Shown here: positions 181 to 63,198 of the stretch, piece after piece
How the letters are laid out: every line of letters begins with the position of its first letter
Numbering within the stretch: the stretch's first letter is position 1
Assembly: GCA_026683435.1 (NCBI GenBank)
Contig: GCA_026683435.1_4866.1
Source: a phage
Reading direction: 5' to 3' (one strand)
DNA length: 64,000 bases
Made by a program: the position numbers and the translations under genes
The notes under the pieces: model-generated
Told to the model about the DNA's origin: nothing
Database searches by the model: none
Seen by the model: only the letters and a program-made list of their open reading frames with translations

Positions 181-199
181 TAGGTAATATCTATCTGTG
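181..199 (-). promoter_or_regulatory. conserved upstream motif P1 (plus-strand reading TAGGTAATATCTATCTGTG), copy 1
   Basis: One of four near-identical copies; lies 51-69 nt upstream of the minus-strand start at 122. Confidence 0.4.
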
Positions 200-211
200 A
201 ATATTTGGGAT

Positions 212-3454: not shown

Positions 3455-4026
3455 TGGGTCACCTTCCTCGGTGTGTACTCGAATGTCGTTTCCGTCAGGT
3501 AATCCTGGCGGATCCAAGTCAGCTCCTGGCCTTGCTCACACTTGATGTTCGTAACCAAACCGGCTTCAAGTGGTAGCTCACAGACCGAAACGATTCCGGG
3601 TTTATCACCGTCCCAATATGCGAATGCCGCAGCAGGGGTTGTTGCCCCGACGATGATTCCGGAATCGACGTAGTCTTCGGTAGCGGCGTCGCTGTACACC
3701 AGGTACAGTTTGAGCGTCGAAGGTTGTTTAACCTGAAATCCGAAATACGTCCCGGTGTTGCCTGAGGGAAATTCCCAGGAATGTCTGGCAGGTTCGGAAA
3801 CAAACTCCAAACCGGGATGGGAGTAATCTTCCCATCGGCCCATCTTCAGGACTACGCCTGCAGCGACATCCGTTGCGGCAACTGGACCGTCGTAGCAGCA
3901 CGCAACCGCTGGACGCTCTGCGCTAACCGGCCAGAAGGATTTGGCCTGCTCCTCGTTTTCGGCTAAGACAACCAAAACCGATTCTGGTACCTCGTTCCGG
4001 TAAAACCCGATGCGATACAAGTTCAT
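3451..4026 (-). CDS. hypothetical protein (191 aa), translationally coupled to the HslV-like gene
   Basis: Long ORF; its stop overlaps the downstream start. Confidence 0.55.
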   Translation of the reverse strand: MNLYRIGFYRNEVPESVLVVLAENEEQAKSFWPVSAERPAVACCYDGPVAATDVAAGVVLKMGRWEDYSHPGLEFVSEPARHSWEFPSGNTGTYFGFQVKQPSTLKLYLVYSDAATEDYVDSGIIVGATTPAAAFAYWDGDKPGIVSVCELPLEAGLVTNIKCEQGQELTWIRQDYLTETTFEYTPRKVTQ

Positions 4027-4933
4027 GGTTTAATTCTCCGTTTGGTTTATCATACCTCACGCAGAATCTGTAAATTTTAATCAGCCAGGTACTGGCGTTT
4101 CACAACGGGAGTACCCACCCCTCTCGTCTGTTCCGAGCCGTCAAGATCCGATCACCCCACTTTGGAGTTATCCCCCAAGTCTGCGGTTCTACACGCAGAC
4201 CCCTTTTCGACGCAACGCCGAATTCGAATCAGTTTTGGCCCGACGCCAGAGCGGAATCAGCGATAACTATCGGAGGTAAGTTCAACGACGTCTCTCCGCT
4301 GCCCAGTCCTCTGGCGCTGCCACGGTCAACTCGGATTTTGTCATGGGTGAGCAGTCGACTTTCTCGACACTCTCGCAAACCGAACTACGCCCGACGTAGC
4401 ACCGTCGGCAGGTCGGTTATTTACCGAGTACCTGAATGGGTGGTGATTGTCGGAATCCCCGCCGACGCTCACCGGTTCTGTTCCACGGCGAAAGTTTTCC
4501 AGAACATAATAAATCACGCAGTGTTAGATTGCGCTTTGTCGAAGACACCACGGTAGGTATTTTCGAAAAAGCGTCCTGGGTAACAATCCCAGGACTTGGA
4601 GCCCTAGCGTGCAGGGTTTAAAAGTGATTGGACCATTGGCGCGGTCAATCGCTATTCGCATATAACAACAAACTCACGTAATCAAAAAATTACCGGCTCG
4701 AGGCGTAGGCGTCCAGGAGCCGGTGAGTCACACAGCAGTGAGTCCCTCTGCGGGGATTTTCGTGGAGCTTGTCGTTGGAATAAAAATCCGTCCCCGGACG
4801 GGTTGGTATTGTGGGTCGACTTGTCAGAGTCTAACGACCAGGGAGGCGACCACCGAAGCTATGGGTTTTTGGACATCGAGTGGTGGTCTGAACACACGAT
4901 AGGGAAACCACGTAAAAAATACACGGGGTACCC

Positions 4934-5177
4934 GATCTCGGTCTTCCGTCCGATCACGATCTCTTAATAAGGATCACGCGCGCGCCCGCACGCGTTTTAA
5001 GATCTTAATATATTAATATATTTATTTATATAAATAATTATAATAATTAAATATAATACCTAAAGGTATTATTATATTTAATATTATTATATATTTTAAA
5101 AGATCCTGGAGGATACGGGTGCGCGCACGCGCACGCGTATAAGGAAAGGGTCTTCGACCCGATCCACAGGATCGATC
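4934..5177. other. GATC (Dam-site) cluster: 9 GATC in about 244 bp
   Basis: Counted directly: GATC at 4934, 4952, 4958, 4972, 5001, 5102, 5161, 5170, 5174. Confidence 0.7.
4973..5139. repeat. ~100-bp nearly pure AT palindromic core (centre near 5059-5068) flanked by alternating-CG tracts; candidate DNA unwinding element / origin
   Basis: Left flank cacgcgcgcgcccgcacgcg, right flank gtgcgcgcacgcgcacgcg; AT core with imperfect inverted symmetry around acctaaaggt. Confidence 0.6.
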
Positions 5178-5232
5178 TAAAAAACAATCTAAGTGATTGT
5201 TTTAAAAAGAAATTTTGAGAATTAGATTAAAT

Positions 5233-5252
5233 TATCCCCTAAGGGGGATTTT
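5233..5252 (+). terminator. hairpin atcccct-a-agggggat followed by TTTTAG
   Basis: Inverted repeat plus short T-run read directly. Confidence 0.35.
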
Positions 5253-5740
5253 AGAGTGAGTTAAACAACCCAAAGAACTCGTAAGTAACCGACAGTGTGT
5301 GTCGGTTACAGAACGATCCAGTTTTCACCCAGACATGGCACGAAGTGCTACCCAACGTGTGATCGTCGTCGCCGGCCGCGACCGTTGTCCCGGAACCGAA
5401 ACGGGAATGGCTCTCTCGCGCTCTCAGCGGCCCGCTGGCGCGATTTTCCGGTATAGGGAACCCAAGTGTACCGGGTCTGAGTTAAATCTCGTTCTAGCGC
5501 TTTCTAGAGCGTTTTTAATAACTGGTTAAAAAACATACAATCCTGAATCCCCATTCCCTGAATTTCCTCGCTCCGACAAAAATAAATTCTCTGTCTCGAT
5601 ACATAACCCCCTCTAAAACGCACGTAACCGACCCTAGAAAACGATAAACTGCCAAAAACGAGCTACCCTACGTCGATACCACCTAATCGTTTTCTGATGC
5701 TTCCCAGACCCCTTTAACCGGTTGGTTAAAAAGTAACCAA

Positions 5741-5789
5741 AAAAATAAAAAAAAAATAAGATTGGCGTACTCCCCGAAGAGAGTACGCC
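5741..5789 (-). terminator. intrinsic terminator: hairpin ggcgtactc-cccgaaga-gagtacgcc plus T-run on minus strand
   Basis: Directly downstream of the minus-strand gene ending at 5797; plus-strand A-run 5741-5760. Confidence 0.6.
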
Positions 5790-5796
5790 TAGTGAC

Positions 5797-6306
5797 TTAA
5801 CACTTGATGGTGTAGCCATCAAGGCCAAGGTGTACTGGTTTTATCCATAACCCTGGCTCCCCGAAAATATTCAGGTCGTAAGTTTGGTAATGCATGATCT
5901 TTGCAGGAACATGCACACCCATGCTTTGCAGAAATTCCCAGACGGCGACGTAGCGTTCACGAGTGATGAACATTAGCCCGGAGTCGAACCCGGAACCGAT
6001 GTCTAGGAAATTACCAAGAGAACTGTCAAAACTTGACACCCCATCTTGAGTAAGTGCGACCAACCCTTTAGTTAAATCTCTGTGGTTGTCAATGAAGTTA
6101 CAGAGATCTACGATGGTTATTTGACCGTAAATACGACGGAGGACGGCAGCAACAGCCAAAATCTCGCTGGTATTTCCGTAGTCACCTAAAGGGTTATGGT
6201 CCATCATCGCAGTAATTATGCTTGTGTCGCAGAGGTCGATTAACCGCTGGTCGTGTACCGCCAGGTTAAGACCTTGCCCCACCTGCACGGTTGGCGCAGT
6301 AAACAT
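5797..6306 (-). CDS. hypothetical protein (169 aa)
   Basis: ORF; strong AAGGAG RBS before ATG at 6306 (ORF track began at an upstream in-frame Met). Confidence 0.55.
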   Translation of the reverse strand: MFTAPTVQVGQGLNLAVHDQRLIDLCDTSIITAMMDHNPLGDYGNTSEILAVAAVLRRIYGQITIVDLCNFIDNHRDLTKGLVALTQDGVSSFDSSLGNFLDIGSGFDSGLMFITRERYVAVWEFLQSMGVHVPAKIMHYQTYDLNIFGEPGLWIKPVHLGLDGYTIKC

Positions 6307-6316
6307 AGGAGGCTCC

Positions 6317-7450
6317 TTACGTTTTGACTGACTGTGAAGGTAATCTGGCATCGTACATTAAAAAGATTTCCAGCAGGCTCATACCCGTCGCGTAAAAGAT
6401 TTGGTCTGTGATGACACTCACTAACGCATCTGGGTCAATCGCATCTACTGCGAAATCGCTGTCGAACTGCCAGAACTCGACGTCATCCCCCTTTTCAAAC
6501 GTCGCGGCATACAATCCAGGTTTCACACCACGCCGGAACGAAAAGAGTTTTGCGTCAGACTCAGTGTCCTTACCATAAATTTCCCCGTCGGTCCGTGTGA
6601 TCGCTGCGCGTTTACACCGAGTTACCGTAAGGAGCGCACGGTTTGCAGATGCTTGCGATTTAAACGGATAGGGGCCATCGTATGTCGGGACATTCTGGTC
6701 GCCTAAGGCATCAAGTGCCTTACTCCGATAGACTACCGGAGACTTAAAATTACACAGTCGATTCCCTTCGGTAAACATTGTGTATTCGACCTTAACGTCG
6801 GTACCGACGAGGTCAGCAGGGGACACTTTGTAGTGTGCTAACTGTCCCTGCACGCGGCGAGAGAGCATCGATGCCAGGAAGGTATGGTTGCCCTGTGTAC
6901 GCAAGACATAACCGAACTCTGTGCAGTCGACGATACGAGCGTCCATACGTCGTACAGGCTCCAGCCGGTAAGTCACATCATTCGCTTCGATAAGAAACTG
7001 ACTGATGCTAACATCGCGAGATCGATGTTTGATTGCTTCAAACACTTCACCCGCTTCCAGAATAGCTGGTTCAATTACATTGACCTGGAATGGGAGGGGT
7101 TTCGTCGGCCGTTGACCCATTGTTGTCACTGTCATCGAACGTAGCCACGGATCGTCCTCGCTAGGGTCATTGGAAAGCCAATGTGTTAACCAGCGAGAAA
7201 GGTTCTGAGGAATCGTTGCGGTTGAATATAAAATCACGGTACCCATTATGCCTGCATCGGCCAGCAAGCGCGCGAGTACCGTGTTCATCGAATCGTATTT
7301 GCCATTTCGAAGAATAGGTAATCCCCCGACCTGGACCATTTCGCAGATGACGCCGTGCGGCAGCACCCACATCTTCACTTGTTGGGCAGAATGTATCTGC
7401 CCCGTGCGTAGCTTTTCTTGCCACGCGTGCTTACGTTCATAGTTCATCAT
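6317..7450 (-). CDS. hypothetical protein (377 aa)
   Basis: Long ORF; AAGGAG RBS before ATG at 7450. Confidence 0.6.
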   Translation of the reverse strand: MMNYERKHAWQEKLRTGQIHSAQQVKMWVLPHGVICEMVQVGGLPILRNGKYDSMNTVLARLLADAGIMGTVILYSTATIPQNLSRWLTHWLSNDPSEDDPWLRSMTVTTMGQRPTKPLPFQVNVIEPAILEAGEVFEAIKHRSRDVSISQFLIEANDVTYRLEPVRRMDARIVDCTEFGYVLRTQGNHTFLASMLSRRVQGQLAHYKVSPADLVGTDVKVEYTMFTEGNRLCNFKSPVVYRSKALDALGDQNVPTYDGPYPFKSQASANRALLTVTRCKRAAITRTDGEIYGKDTESDAKLFSFRRGVKPGLYAATFEKGDDVEFWQFDSDFAVDAIDPDALVSVITDQIFYATGMSLLEIFLMYDARLPSQSVKT

Positions 7451-8965: not shown

Positions 8966-9208
8966 TCAGGCGAGTGCTCCCGATACGGCAACTTGATGTA
9001 GGGTATACACAACGTGTAGCCCCGCGGTCGATAGTCCACCGATAAGCAATACGCCAAAGCTACAGATAATCTGTCCGAGCCGCATTGTGCGTGTGCAGAC
9101 ATCGTGGCTTTGTGCGTGTATGCGTATTACTTCGATGGTGTGGCGTAAGCCAAAGTATAGGCAAATCCACATTACCAGCACGATTGCGTAGTAGAGTTGA
9201 GTCATCAC
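8966..9208 (-). CDS. small predicted membrane protein (80 aa, two hydrophobic segments)
   Basis: ORF whose ATG overlaps the stop of the terminase gene (ATGA coupling); two hydrophobic stretches. Confidence 0.45.
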   Translation of the reverse strand: MMTQLYYAIVLVMWICLYFGLRHTIEVIRIHAQSHDVCTRTMRLGQIICSFGVLLIGGLSTAGLHVVYTLHQVAVSGALA

Positions 9209-11316
9209 TTCATCCTCTGTCGTTGGATTAGCTCTTTCAAGCTTTCCATCGATGCGACGTTACGAACGTCAGTGTTGAGTTGAGAGACGAGCGCTTGAAT
9301 ACGATTCTTGTACATGAGCTGTTGTACCGGGTCGGCTACAACTTGACTCTGCCTAATCATCGTTTCAATTTGCCCCATCAGTTGTTGTTGCTTTTCTTCT
9401 TCCTCGACTGCAGCCTCTTCATCGAATTCACCTGCCATGCCCCCAAGCATATTGCGGTTGCGCATCATCAGTCGGCTGTTACTTATACCGTAGTGGCCTA
9501 AGTTGTTGCCGAACAGAAGTAACCACATTGCCAGAAGCCAGGATATTACCAGGTCATCGTGACCGGATGCACGGTGGTCTATGCGCCCGTTTCGTTCGAC
9601 GAGACCGAGGATTTGGTCGATCAATTCGCCTGACCGCAGTAAGTCCGCAGAAAGACGCAACGCCGTGGTAAATACTTCACCATACAACTTACGGCGTTTA
9701 TCCTGGTCGGTTGAGAAACCGATGTATTTACGGAATTTGTCCCAGAAGCGCTCTGGACTGCCCACAGGGCCACGATGGAACTCTTTGTAAAGTTCATCGT
9801 TCCTTGAGTAATCCTGGGTCACTTTCACGTACAAACGACGATGCAAATCGCGAACCTTAGATTGCAGCTGCAGTATAATGGCATCTGCTACCGAGGAGCC
9901 GGTAGACCGTCGTTCCAGAATGAGTACCGTGTTCGGATATTCGATCATGAAGTCTGCTAAGTGAATCGCAAACCCGATGACGTTTGTTTCGTTCACGGTG
10001 AGCTTGCCGGCATATTCGGCAGTGACAGAGTTGACGATTGACATGGCAATGGCGTCCCGCCCCACGGCTTCGGAAGTATCCAAACCGATGATGTGGCGGT
10101 CTTGCATTTTAACCAGCATCTGTTCTTCAGTGTAATACCAATCCGTTACGTAGTTGGAAGCAGAGATAATTTTCTGTGCTGCCCGAATACGCGAGGCGTT
10201 CATACGTCTTGCATCATCGCCTGAGAACGGTTTGTTGTAACCACCGGTTGTCCATTCACCACCGAAGTCACGGCGGATTTGGTCTAGTGTACCTGGGGCG
10301 TTCGCAATCATATCTGCGAGTTCTTCGTCCGTGGTACCGAGTTGGCGGTGGTTGTATTTCACGTAGAACATGATACGTGGAATCTTCGCAGTAGAGCCTT
10401 TGCGAATCATGTCAATCAGTTGTGCACGAGTCGGAATGTCGATATACCGTTCATCCCACGAAATCCCCGACGTCATCAGGCTGTACATGTACTCGCCTTC
10501 TTCTGTCGCCAAATCCCCAGGCGTTGTTGCGAAGACGTTGCCGTATGGAACACCTTCGGCTTCGTTAATACGACGCGCCGCAGTACCCGATGCTAGTGCA
10601 GCGGGGAGGATATGGTGGATGTTGTTGGTAAACGGTCCTTCATCCGAGAACAGGCGTCCGGCTGTGAGTCCACGGCCTACCCCGTTCGCAGCTTCCTTAT
10701 CGTTTTGACCGATGCCGGTGATAAGTTTGTTACCCTGTGCTAGACAAGCAAATGTCTCACGGTTATCAGGATCGTCCGGATGATGAGGCCAGAGATAATC
10801 CGGTAACGCGTTACGCAGTTGTTTCATTTTGTTGATAGTTTCTTCACGCAGGGCAGGACCCTTCGTGATAAGAATCGTACGTGAGTTCTCCAGGAAGCGC
10901 ATCAGCCACAATAGCAATGCGGACATCCCGACAGTCTTACCATGCTGACGGAGAAACTCGATAGCGGCGTCGATGTTGTTGAAGAAAATCCAATACATCG
11001 AAAAGTTACCGCGGTCTAGACGAAACGGCATCCCGTTCTTTACACCATCCGCAGGGACCCGGACACACTCACGGAAGAAGTACCATGGGTTTTCCGCACA
11101 CTCCGTAACAATCATCGCTTTTTGTTCGAGTGTTAAATCCGGGCTAAACGGATCAACACCACGGAGTTCGGGATTGTGTAATGCCAGGTGGACGTACCAA
11201 TGCTGGACACCTAATCCTTGTAGTGTTGTGGCGAATTGAAGGAAGTGCACGTTTGGTGTGACATCGTCAACAATCGCCCCCGGATAGTGTCGCCAATCGT
11301 TTTTTCGCAGTATCAT
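9205..11316 (-). CDS. terL: terminase large subunit
   Basis: Deviant Walker A LRQHGKTVG as in T4 gp17-type terminases; C-terminal nuclease-like GHDDLVISW motif; 703 aa. Confidence 0.75.
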   Translation of the reverse strand: MILRKNDWRHYPGAIVDDVTPNVHFLQFATTLQGLGVQHWYVHLALHNPELRGVDPFSPDLTLEQKAMIVTECAENPWYFFRECVRVPADGVKNGMPFRLDRGNFSMYWIFFNNIDAAIEFLRQHGKTVGMSALLLWLMRFLENSRTILITKGPALREETINKMKQLRNALPDYLWPHHPDDPDNRETFACLAQGNKLITGIGQNDKEAANGVGRGLTAGRLFSDEGPFTNNIHHILPAALASGTAARRINEAEGVPYGNVFATTPGDLATEEGEYMYSLMTSGISWDERYIDIPTRAQLIDMIRKGSTAKIPRIMFYVKYNHRQLGTTDEELADMIANAPGTLDQIRRDFGGEWTTGGYNKPFSGDDARRMNASRIRAAQKIISASNYVTDWYYTEEQMLVKMQDRHIIGLDTSEAVGRDAIAMSIVNSVTAEYAGKLTVNETNVIGFAIHLADFMIEYPNTVLILERRSTGSSVADAIILQLQSKVRDLHRRLYVKVTQDYSRNDELYKEFHRGPVGSPERFWDKFRKYIGFSTDQDKRRKLYGEVFTTALRLSADLLRSGELIDQILGLVERNGRIDHRASGHDDLVISWLLAMWLLLFGNNLGHYGISNSRLMMRNRNMLGGMAGEFDEEAAVEEEEKQQQLMGQIETMIRQSQVVADPVQQLMYKNRIQALVSQLNTDVRNVASMESLKELIQRQRMK

Positions 11317-22388: not shown

Positions 22389-22417
22389 TAAGTAATATAT
22401 ATCTCAGTTCTTTTTGA
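22389..22417 (-). promoter_or_regulatory. motif P1 (TAAGTAATATATATCTCAG TTCTTTTTGA), copy 2
   Basis: Near-identical to the copies at 181, 54049 and 63167. Confidence 0.4.
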
Positions 22418-22478
22418 ATGCAATTAATAAAATAAAAAGACTCACCCGTATCCGAAGATAGGATGAGCCTAGTGGAGC

Positions 22479-54048: not shown

Positions 54049-54077
54049 TAGATAATATCTGTCTGAGTTCTTTTTGA
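54049..54077 (-). promoter_or_regulatory. motif P1 (TAGATAATATCTGTCTGAG TTCTTTTTGA), copy 3, in a divergent intergenic region
   Basis: Between the minus start at 54015 and the plus start at 54092. Confidence 0.45.
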
Positions 54078-54091
54078 GATGAGGTTATCCC

Positions 54092-63166: not shown

Positions 63167-63198
63167 TAGATAATATCTATCTCAGATTACTTTAAGAG
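63167..63198 (-). promoter_or_regulatory. motif P1 (TAGATAATATCTATCTCAG ATTACTTTAAGAG), copy 4
   Basis: Same spacing to the gene start (63133) as copy 3. Confidence 0.45.

Follow-up and report, generated by a model that had tools for sequence, protein, structure and literature searches.

The 64,000-nucleotide stretch of phage DNA analyzed here (contig GCA_026683435.1_4866.1 of NCBI GenBank assembly GCA_026683435.1, hereafter the window) derives from an SPN3US-like, nucleus-forming jumbo phage of Salmonella and carries, around position 5000, a non-coding element of about 250 bp. This cis element is real, unique and deeply conserved. What defines it physically is that no other site in the genome unwinds so easily; structure-prone tracts frame it and, in most lineages, a maintained GATC array does so too. 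Three genome-wide extremes, independent of one another, meet there: GATC density, A+T content together with purine–pyrimidine alternation, and duplex stability. The most economical function for such an element is that of a replication origin or its unwinding module, and we give a probability of roughly 45% to its being a single-copy, cis-acting replicator of the SPN3US-like nucleus-forming jumbo phages, either the origin of lytic replication or at least the DNA-unwinding module of that origin.

Window positions 4000–6500 are closest to Seoulvirus phages of Salmonella (SPLA5c, SPLA3, the SPFM series and SPN3US), with 95–99% identity in a megablast search that matched 41 phage records. These Salmonella phages have genomes of 240 kb and belong to the nucleus-forming jumbo phages (PMC13282480). 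Relative to the SPN3US record the window is reverse-complemented, with window position ~5209 corresponding to SPN3US base 1, and it runs from ~5.2 kb of SPN3US backwards across the record junction into the last ~59 kb. The whole SPN3US genome, joined from five annotated stretches, was used for genome-wide statistics, and the Erwinia phage Huxley was taken as a divergent second genome. The locus was read in SPAsTU, pEa_SNUABM_29, Asesino, phiEaH2, Huxley, SNUABM_6, Kwan, SNUABM_4, Caitlin and ChrisDB, and also in an IMG/VR contig, a 222-kb circular E. coli “plasmid”, a Shewanella-associated 223-kb contig and a Logan contig. The family as analyzed comprises 15 sequences, which belong to Seoulvirus, Erskinevirus, Machinavirus and Wellingtonvirus or are one of three unclassified sequences (an E. 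coli episome, the Shewanella-associated contig and the Logan contig).

Anatomy and uniqueness of the element

The element is built around an AT core that is bracketed by conserved boxes, alternating tracts and GATC clusters (Table 1). A preliminary description of the window had reported nine GATC sites in about 244 bp, and all nine are present (starting at 4934, 4952, 4958, 4972, 5001, 5102, 5161, 5170 and 5174, span 4934–5177) against a local expectation of 0.73. The roughly 100 bp of nearly pure A/T and the flanking alternating-CG runs of about 20 bp were likewise described correctly, and so was the island free of open reading frames: SPN3US RefSeq has no annotated gene at 4027–5796, which holds short mechanical open reading frames only. 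The imperfect dyad symmetry ascribed to the A/T stretch stands in part, as the fold of the whole stretch is marginal (DNA fold z = -1.9; 11 of 200 shuffles fold equally well) whereas the central hairpin is clear. The edges of the core are formed by inverted GATCTT and AAGATC, and the two boxes TAATAAGGATCACGCG and AAAAGATCCTGKAGGA flank it with AGGATC and GATCCT, which form an inverted pair; the outer boxes are in direct orientation and the element as a whole is not palindromic. The left and right tracts form a direct repeat with 80% identity, and the left tract could in principle adopt Z-DNA and act as a GC clamp.

Table 1. Features of the element and of the adjoining non-coding region (window coordinates; strand given where assigned).
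Feature	Position	Strand	Description
Element overall	~4930-5180		~250 bp, non-coding
Left outer GATC cluster	4934-4975		Four GATC in 42 bp, including a pair 6 bp apart start to start (4952, 4958)
Left conserved box GATCTCTTAATAAGGATCACGCG	4958-4980	+	Family consensus GATCTC(G/T)TAATAAGGATCACGCGCG
Left alternating CG (purine-pyrimidine) tract	4975-4995		CACGCGCGCGC, C, CGCACGCGT; runs of 11 and 9 nt
AT core, candidate DNA-unwinding element	5005-5101		97 nt, 4 G/C, 96% A+T
Central GC-tipped hairpin/cruciform ATAATACC-TAAA-GGTATTAT	5053-5072		The actual symmetric feature of the core
Right conserved box TTTTAAAAGATCCTGGAGGATAC	5094-5116	+	Contains the GATC at 5102 and the 12-bp near-palindrome ATCCTnnAGGAT
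Right alternating purine-pyrimidine tract GTGCGCGCACGCGCACGCGTATA	5119-5141		23 nt of perfect alternation, Z-DNA-prone
TATAAGGAAAGG box followed by hairpin GGGTCTTCGACCC	5138-5160		Terminator-like when read on the minus strand
Right outer GATC cluster	5161-5177		Three GATC in 17 bp
Extended conserved non-coding flank	5180-5560		Hairpins at 5181-5203, 5234-5249 and 5285-5309
Strong terminator-like hairpin	5764-5789	-	11 pairs followed by a T-rich tail; directly past the stop codon of the gp264 homologue

The window is poor in GATC overall (159 sites against 256 +/- 16 in shuffles), and the nine sites at the element have a Poisson probability of 8e-8; the runner-up 250-bp windows hold 3. A density at the element equal to that of the rest of the genome had been named as evidence that would refute an origin. 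This comparison does not refute it: the element has ~36 GATC per kb, some 15-fold more than the remainder of the window and of the genome. SPN3US has 489 GATC sites where a Markov model predicts 1207 (observed/expected 0.40), which makes GATC its most depleted 4-bp palindrome, and the element alone provides a 250-bp window with at least 8 of them (runner-up 4). It is equally alone in A+T content: no other 100-bp stretch of the window or of SPN3US reaches 80% (95% at the element in both; the runner-up in the window has 70%, and the 99.9th percentile in SPN3US is 71%). The right tract, at 23 nt, is the longest alternating purine–pyrimidine run in the window (next 17) and in SPN3US (next 16; 0.06 expected). 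Finally, the global minimum of nearest-neighbor duplex stability in SPN3US falls on the core, with -87.9 against -140.1 +/- 6.1 kcal/mol per 100 bp, a deviation of 8.4–8.6 standard deviations (runner-up 4.6).

Huxley repeats this picture. Its genome has 415 GATC sites against 1220 expected, and its element is the sole 100-bp window with at least 80% A+T, contains the longest alternating run (21 nt), forms the stability minimum (6.8 standard deviations) and is the joint-top GATC window with 5 sites. Each of the two boxes occurs just once in SPN3US and once in Huxley, which argues against a reiterated promoter or operator.

The genome-wide scarcity of GATC in both phages is observed despite a conserved phage methylase of the E. 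coli type. SPN3US Dam (96875-97669, outside the window) is a D12-class adenine methylase (PF02086, E = 2.5e-52) whose nearest solved structure is E. coli Dam (2g1p, E = 1.4e-54), and by tblastn all genera of the clade have an orthologue at the corresponding place on the map. From the GATC density the preliminary description had argued for a Dam-positive host. The hosts (Salmonella, Erwinia and E. coli) are indeed Dam-positive; the inference itself is not needed, as the phage has its own Dam of the E. coli type and its genome avoids GATC.

Conservation across the family

When compared with the window by sensitive blastn, the Erwinia phages have essentially only positions 4950–5148 in common with it. 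The alignment gives the same order of parts in 15/15 members: a GATC cluster, GATCTC(G/T)TAATAAGGATCACGCGCG, the CG tract, the A/T core, TTTTAAAAGATCCTG(G/T)AGGA, the alternating tract, GTATAATGAAAGG, a hairpin and a second GATC cluster. In all 15 the element is single-copy and syntenic, in a non-coding gap downstream of the large terminase (TerL), gp262, gp263 and gp264, and the boxes are near-invariant while the gp263 and gp264 homologues go down to 48–60% identity. The left box is near-identical in 12 of the 15, including the Shewanella-associated and Logan contigs, and the right box has the consensus AAAAGATCCTGKAGGA in 13, with the variants AAAAGATCCTGAAGGA in the Shewanella contig and TTTTGATCCTAAAGGAA in the E. 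coli episome. The GATC at 5102 within the right box is the one present in every member.

Around these fixed points the remaining parts keep their character as their sequences drift. The left outer cluster holds 2–5 GATC at shifting positions and is lost in the SNUABM_4/ChrisDB/Caitlin subgroup; the right one has one to three in most relatives. Loss of Dam was considered as an explanation for the loss of GATC and rejected, since this low-GATC subgroup retains the methylase at the same map position as the other genera. The left CG tract varies in length and sequence and stays alternating, and the right tract (15–28 nt in 10 of the 15) maintains its alternation with a different primary sequence. 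The TATAAGGAAAGG box is conserved as GTATAATGAAAGG or TAATAGAAGG, and its hairpin is swapped for different complementary sequences. Summed over the family, 84 GATC are observed at the element against 9.3 expected; eleven of the 15 sequences are strongly enriched (P below 0.001), the Shewanella contig and Caitlin less so (P ~0.02).

The core measures 55–190 bp in the relatives and usually has one or two GC-tipped hairpins. In the alignment of the central hairpin 100% of 77 cells are paired, two of the six pairs change on both sides and none of 500 shuffles equals this; the compensatory forms are CCC/GGG, ACC/GGT and ATC/GAT, and the number of independent events is small. This hairpin is absent from Kwan and from the Logan contig. 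The first core hairpin reads AAACCC-GTA-GGGTTT in Huxley and AAACCC-TAC-GGGTTT in pEa_SNUABM_6, with the loop inverted. Because the two loops are exact reverse complements, the difference looks like a flip of the palindrome and not like two point changes, as would be expected if the palindrome were processed as a structure.

A candidate origin and the rival readings

If the element is an origin, the way it works may be pictured as follows, with every functional step, from factor binding and melting in vivo to Z-DNA formation, methylation control and the start of replication at this site, being one that we infer from the observed anatomy, uniqueness, conservation, synteny, hairpin covariation and conserved phage Dam. 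A phage factor would bind the two near-invariant boxes TAATAAGGATCACGCG and AAAAGATCCTGKAGGA that bracket the core, and the core would melt with negative supercoiling. Its GC-tipped palindrome or palindromes would extrude as hairpins or a cruciform and so expose single-stranded DNA on which helicase and primase could load. The alternating CG tracts on both sides would serve as GC clamps that confine the bubble, and their tendency to form Z-DNA might allow them to take up torsional stress or to signal it. Methylation of the surrounding GATC sites by the phage Dam would put initiation under methylation control: the core would open more easily when the sites are fully methylated, and an origin that has fired would be recognizable by its hemimethylated sites, in the manner of oriC and P1 oriR.

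Several observations weigh against this reading. DnaA boxes (TTWTNCACA, and a relaxed pattern too) and the IHF consensus are both absent from 15/15 family members, and a search for iterons (at least three direct repeats of ~17–22 bp) gave no more than low-complexity repeats rich in A/T and a single repeat, in two copies, of the CG tracts. No initiator was recognized among the neighboring genes, for which Pfam gave nothing and PHROGs only families of unknown function; gp263 is ligase-like and comparisons of gp264 were uninformative. Large phages of the T4 type initiate most of their replication through recombination and can dispense with their origins. Only 4 kb separate the element from the large terminase gene, and its two-cluster GATC geometry, taken together with a phage Dam, would equally recall the pac site of P1. 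In SNUABM_4 and ChrisDB, with 2 sites each, GATC is not significantly enriched, and in Caitlin it is so only marginally (2–3 sites in this subgroup); as this subgroup retains Dam, control by methylation cannot be essential. Derbicus, whose TerL is 69% identical, has the syntenic gap and no recognizable element in it: the gap (7240–7370 of the stretch read) is moderately AT-rich with repeated GGATAA and GAATGA-like words. The corresponding gap of Vibrio phage pVa-21 (TerL 44% identical; 9400–9850 of the stretch read) has eight GATC in 420 bp (~0.8 expected) and is patchily AT-rich, without the conserved boxes. Both gap sequences may be non-homologous replacements of the element.

Cumulative GC skew across the whole genome, which the preliminary description had proposed as a check, turned out to follow gene orientation. 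The raw curve of SPN3US rises near-monotonically because ~80% of the genes are on one strand, and raw skew was therefore rejected as proof of an origin. In a two-term fit of transcription and bidirectional replication the best origin position in SPN3US is 237 kb, which is 3.5 kb away from the element, with P = 0.001–0.08 varying with the permutation block size. A fit confined to four-fold degenerate sites has its optimum at 7 kb (P = 0.027), and from one half of the genome to the other the genes of the two strands cross over as predicted, with overlapping confidence intervals. The same analysis of the syntenic Huxley has its optimum at 165 kb (P = 0.07) and is approximately zero at the element, which counts against an origin here. 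As the weak SPN3US signal is not replicated, we give skew little weight and treat it as uninformative.

The idea of an origin with an unwinding element, as first put forward, fits the stability minimum in two divergent genomes, the single copy and the conservation; its “enterobacterial-style” qualifier does not survive the absence of DnaA and IHF sites and the non-significant likeness to oriC. The oriC of E. coli and Salmonella is DnaA-dependent and combines an AT-rich 13-mer unwinding element with 11 GATC sites read by Dam and SeqA. The element resembles it in having an AT-rich unwinding region inside a dense GATC cluster of ~250 bp, with Dam available, and in having GATC at the edges of the AT stretch (GATCTT... 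in the element, the 13-mer GATCTnTTnTTTT in oriC). It differs in lacking DnaA boxes and an IHF site, in its core of ~100 bp of near-pure A/T with hairpins in place of three 13-mers, in flanking CG tracts that have no oriC counterpart, and in a methylase that is phage-encoded. The left box resembles the R 13-mer of oriC, but mimicry was considered and rejected: for the best local alignment (GATCTCTTAATAAGGATC against GATCTCTTATTAGGATC) P is 0.05 when dinucleotides are shuffled and 0.28 when the shuffles preserve GATC. A blastn search against 5,426 E. coli genomes did not match oriC, the reference sequence of which was checked to be a single-copy chromosomal locus. Such phages replicate their DNA in a protein-bounded compartment (PMC13282480), which would make the use of host DnaA or SeqA unlikely.

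Other origins offer partial parallels. P1 oriR and iteron-type origins have an AT-rich region with GATC-containing repeats beside initiator iterons and the initiator gene. GATC is likewise associated with an AT-rich opening region here and methylation could matter, whereas iterons are lacking and no initiator is recognized next to the element. Herpesvirus oriS and oriL have an AT-rich palindromic center flanked by inverted boxes for the origin-binding protein; by analogy only, the element has a hairpin-capable A/T center, inverted AGGATC ... GATCCT flanks and GC-rich surroundings, and both are hard to sequence and assemble. The element is unlike them in that it is not palindromic overall, has direct outer boxes and comes with no homologous binding protein. 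With T4 oriF/oriG and the T7 primary origin it shares the setting of a lytic phage with its own RNA polymerases and an unwinding element beside conserved short boxes that could be a promoter; an RNA-primed (R-loop) start is conceivable. T4 and T7 origins have neither GATC clusters nor alternating CG tracts. No promoter could be assigned at the element: it lacks the early-promoter-like motif of this phage, and what is known of middle and late promoters in these phages is too weak for scanning (PMC7598289). Judged by sequence features, the element appears to fall outside the DnaA/oriC, iteron and P1-pac families.

A bolder version of the replicator reading, which we hold as doubtful, would make the element the first cis-acting replicator of nucleus-forming (Chimalliviridae-type) jumbo phages. 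It would be a torsion-sensing switch composed of a hairpin-bearing A/T bubble and Z-prone tracts, licensed by Dam through a GATC array that is held against genome-wide avoidance, and read in the phage nucleus by a phage protein on the two AGGATC-containing boxes, independently of DnaA and SeqA.

A Dam-controlled pac site of the P1 type, which the preliminary description had not considered, also fits the anatomy. The element would then be a headful-packaging site under adenine methylation: terminase would recognize the GATC-bearing flanks and the boxes and cut in or beside the AT core only when the phage Dam had fully methylated the sites, a requirement by which each concatemer would be cut no more than once. 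In the P1 pac site of Sternberg and Coulby, which reportedly spans 162 bp, the cleavage region lies between one group of four and one of three TGATCA/G hexamers; cleavage is said to need Dam methylation, and P1 encodes its own Dam. The likeness lies in two GATC clusters (4+1 and 1+3) around a center of ~100 bp, in a phage Dam conserved in all genera, and in a single-copy cis element ~4 kb downstream of the large terminase gene (9205-11316) with conserved synteny. We nevertheless consider a pac site unlikely. The P1 hexamer TGATC(A/G) occurs 0–1 times per element and the IHF site in none of the 15 members; the element is outside any terminase gene; and no small terminase is recognizable nearby, as none of the four genes between the element and TerL matches one in Pfam, PHROGs or further comparisons. 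The extreme unwinding element with its hairpins, and the Z-prone CG tracts, have no counterpart in P1 and no evident need in a pac site. SPN3US-like genomes are described as circularly permuted (PMC6614189, PMC8812316), and PhageTerm found no fixed termini in two Aeromonas giant phages (PMC12390700).

Assembly breaks are the further argument for packaging at this site. The linear records of SPN3US, JN03, SPFM2, SPFM16, SPFM17, Proteus phage 7 and SEGD1 end in or beside the element, and an independent metagenomic assembly of the Shewanella-associated genome at ENA (k141_58160, 223,477 bp) stops ~400 bp past the gp264 homologue and misses the element by 1.3 kb. At NCBI the sequence of that genome reads through where the ENA contig ends. 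Contig breaks are, however, to be expected from loss of coverage in a hairpin-bearing stretch of 96% A+T, given that the SPFM genomes come from Nextera XT libraries assembled with SPAdes (PMC6614189). Other record starts were copied from relatives (PMC8812316, PMC6256631): those of the Erwinia phages were placed by alignment to relatives (PMC6256631), and EC001 was realigned to JN03 (PMC8812316). The two ends of JN03 rejoin without loss. In many SPFM records (e.g. LR535912.1) the first few kb consist of correct blocks of ~60–70 nt in scrambled or reversed order, which give 10–36 BLAST alignment pieces; this looks like an artefact of deposit or editing, and the SPFM paper mentions an upload error (PMC6614189). 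With starts copied, SPFM starts scrambled and the JN03 ends rejoining seamlessly, record starts and ends were rejected as physical termini, and coverage loss explains the remaining independent breaks equally well. Two further kinds of terminus or junction were discarded. Telomere resolution of the N15 telRL type is contradicted by palindromes that are only short and imperfect, by neighboring genes without a recombinase or protelomerase match and by the absence of a protelomerase from the SPN3US annotation; for cos and attP, no perfect palindrome was found and an integrase is not among the annotated SPN3US genes.

It is also rather improbable, in our view more so than packaging, that the element is a transcription or RNA hub, in which the gap would hold the terminators of the terminase operon and one or more promoters for HslV, tRNA genes or non-coding RNAs, and the hairpin-bearing AT core would serve a phage RNA polymerase as a promoter or insulator that depends on supercoiling. 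Ten terminator-like hairpins in 3900–5900 against 2.2 expected, mostly on the transcribed (minus) strand, are in keeping with this, and many of the flanking hairpins pair through different sequences in relatives; a conserved TATAAT-like box adjoins the right tract, tRNA genes lie just downstream of the gap, and early promoters of jumbo phages are short AT-rich motifs (PMC7598289). The boxes are, however, single-copy, unlike promoter or operator motifs; 3500–6500 contains no Rfam family (no match with E below 0.5) and no tRNA; and a hub leaves the GATC enrichment and the flanking alternating tracts unexplained. An early promoter at the element was rejected, since the repeated early-promoter-like motif AGATAGATATTAYCTA (minus strand) is found elsewhere in the genome and not here. 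On its own account, this motif, TAG(A/G)TAATATCTATCT (AGATAGATATTAYCTA on the minus strand), stands upstream of minus-strand genes at window positions 181-206, 22389-22419, 54049-54079 and 63167-63197, and looks like the short AT-rich early-promoter motif expected for a jumbo-phage virion RNA polymerase. The gap probably serves several functions.

We see little chance that the element is a structure-forming hotspot of recombination or processing, where hairpins or cruciforms of the core palindromes would be cleaved by a phage SbcCD-like nuclease or a resolvase, leaving ends from which recombination-dependent replication or the processing of concatemers would start. The phage does encode SbcD-like and SMC/SbcC-like proteins, the core hairpins co-vary with one loop inversion between close relatives, and the locus adjoins a variable region of tRNAs and small open reading frames that differs between genera. 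Against this, the stems are short (5–9 bp) and missing from Kwan and the Logan contig, SbcCD homologues are general recombination proteins of the T4 type, and neither the invariant boxes nor the GATC enrichment would be accounted for.

Genomic surroundings and significance

In the direction of transcription (minus strand of the window) the gap is preceded by the large terminase gene, gp261, gp262 (on the opposite strand), gp263 and gp264, and followed by an HslV-like peptidase and a tRNA-Trp. The terminator-like hairpin behind gp264 (Table 1) marks the start of a 1.7-kb non-coding region in that direction. Within the flank at 5180–5560 a C-GNA-G triloop mini-hairpin, GCAC-GAA-GTGC, is located at 5338–5348 (of the GCGAAGC type in Erwinia phages), and reading the listings by eye revealed the conserved blocks CCAACGTGTGATCG (GATC at 5361) and GGAACCCAAGTGTACCGGGT and the invariant blocks CCAACGTNTGATCG, GGAACCCAAGTGTACCGGGT and CTGGTTAAAAA. 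Also by eye, the flank hairpin stems (e.g. 5285–5309) differ between genera yet remain complementary. The flank may be part of the same functional unit as the element.

Two records deserve mention in their own right. The 221,873-bp circular “plasmid p98232-contig_4” of E. coli strain 98232, a human urine isolate (NZ_CP173450.1), resembles the genome of a jumbo phage related to this clade. It has a TerL-like gene, gp262 and gp263 in synteny, as well as a tRNA and the element, whose AT core is here ~190 bp long, which suggests a carried or pseudolysogenic jumbo phage. In Huxley (KX397368.1), a “putative ParB” (gp11, 3666-3998) and a “putative TerB” (gp6, 1497-1922) are annotated ~2–4 kb beyond the element in a tRNA-rich variable region.

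The recent reviews consulted do not treat how replication of nucleus-forming jumbo phages is initiated or whether a start site exists for their headful packaging (PMC13282480, PMC7824862), and we found no description of the element, or of an origin or pac site for this clade, in the searchable literature. A sharply bounded element of ~250 bp, present in at least four genera and with two invariant boxes, makes the question testable. It gives the conserved phage Dam a concrete candidate role in a genome that otherwise purges GATC, accounts for the assembly breaks at this spot in therapeutic-candidate phages, and is a site to leave intact when these phages are engineered.

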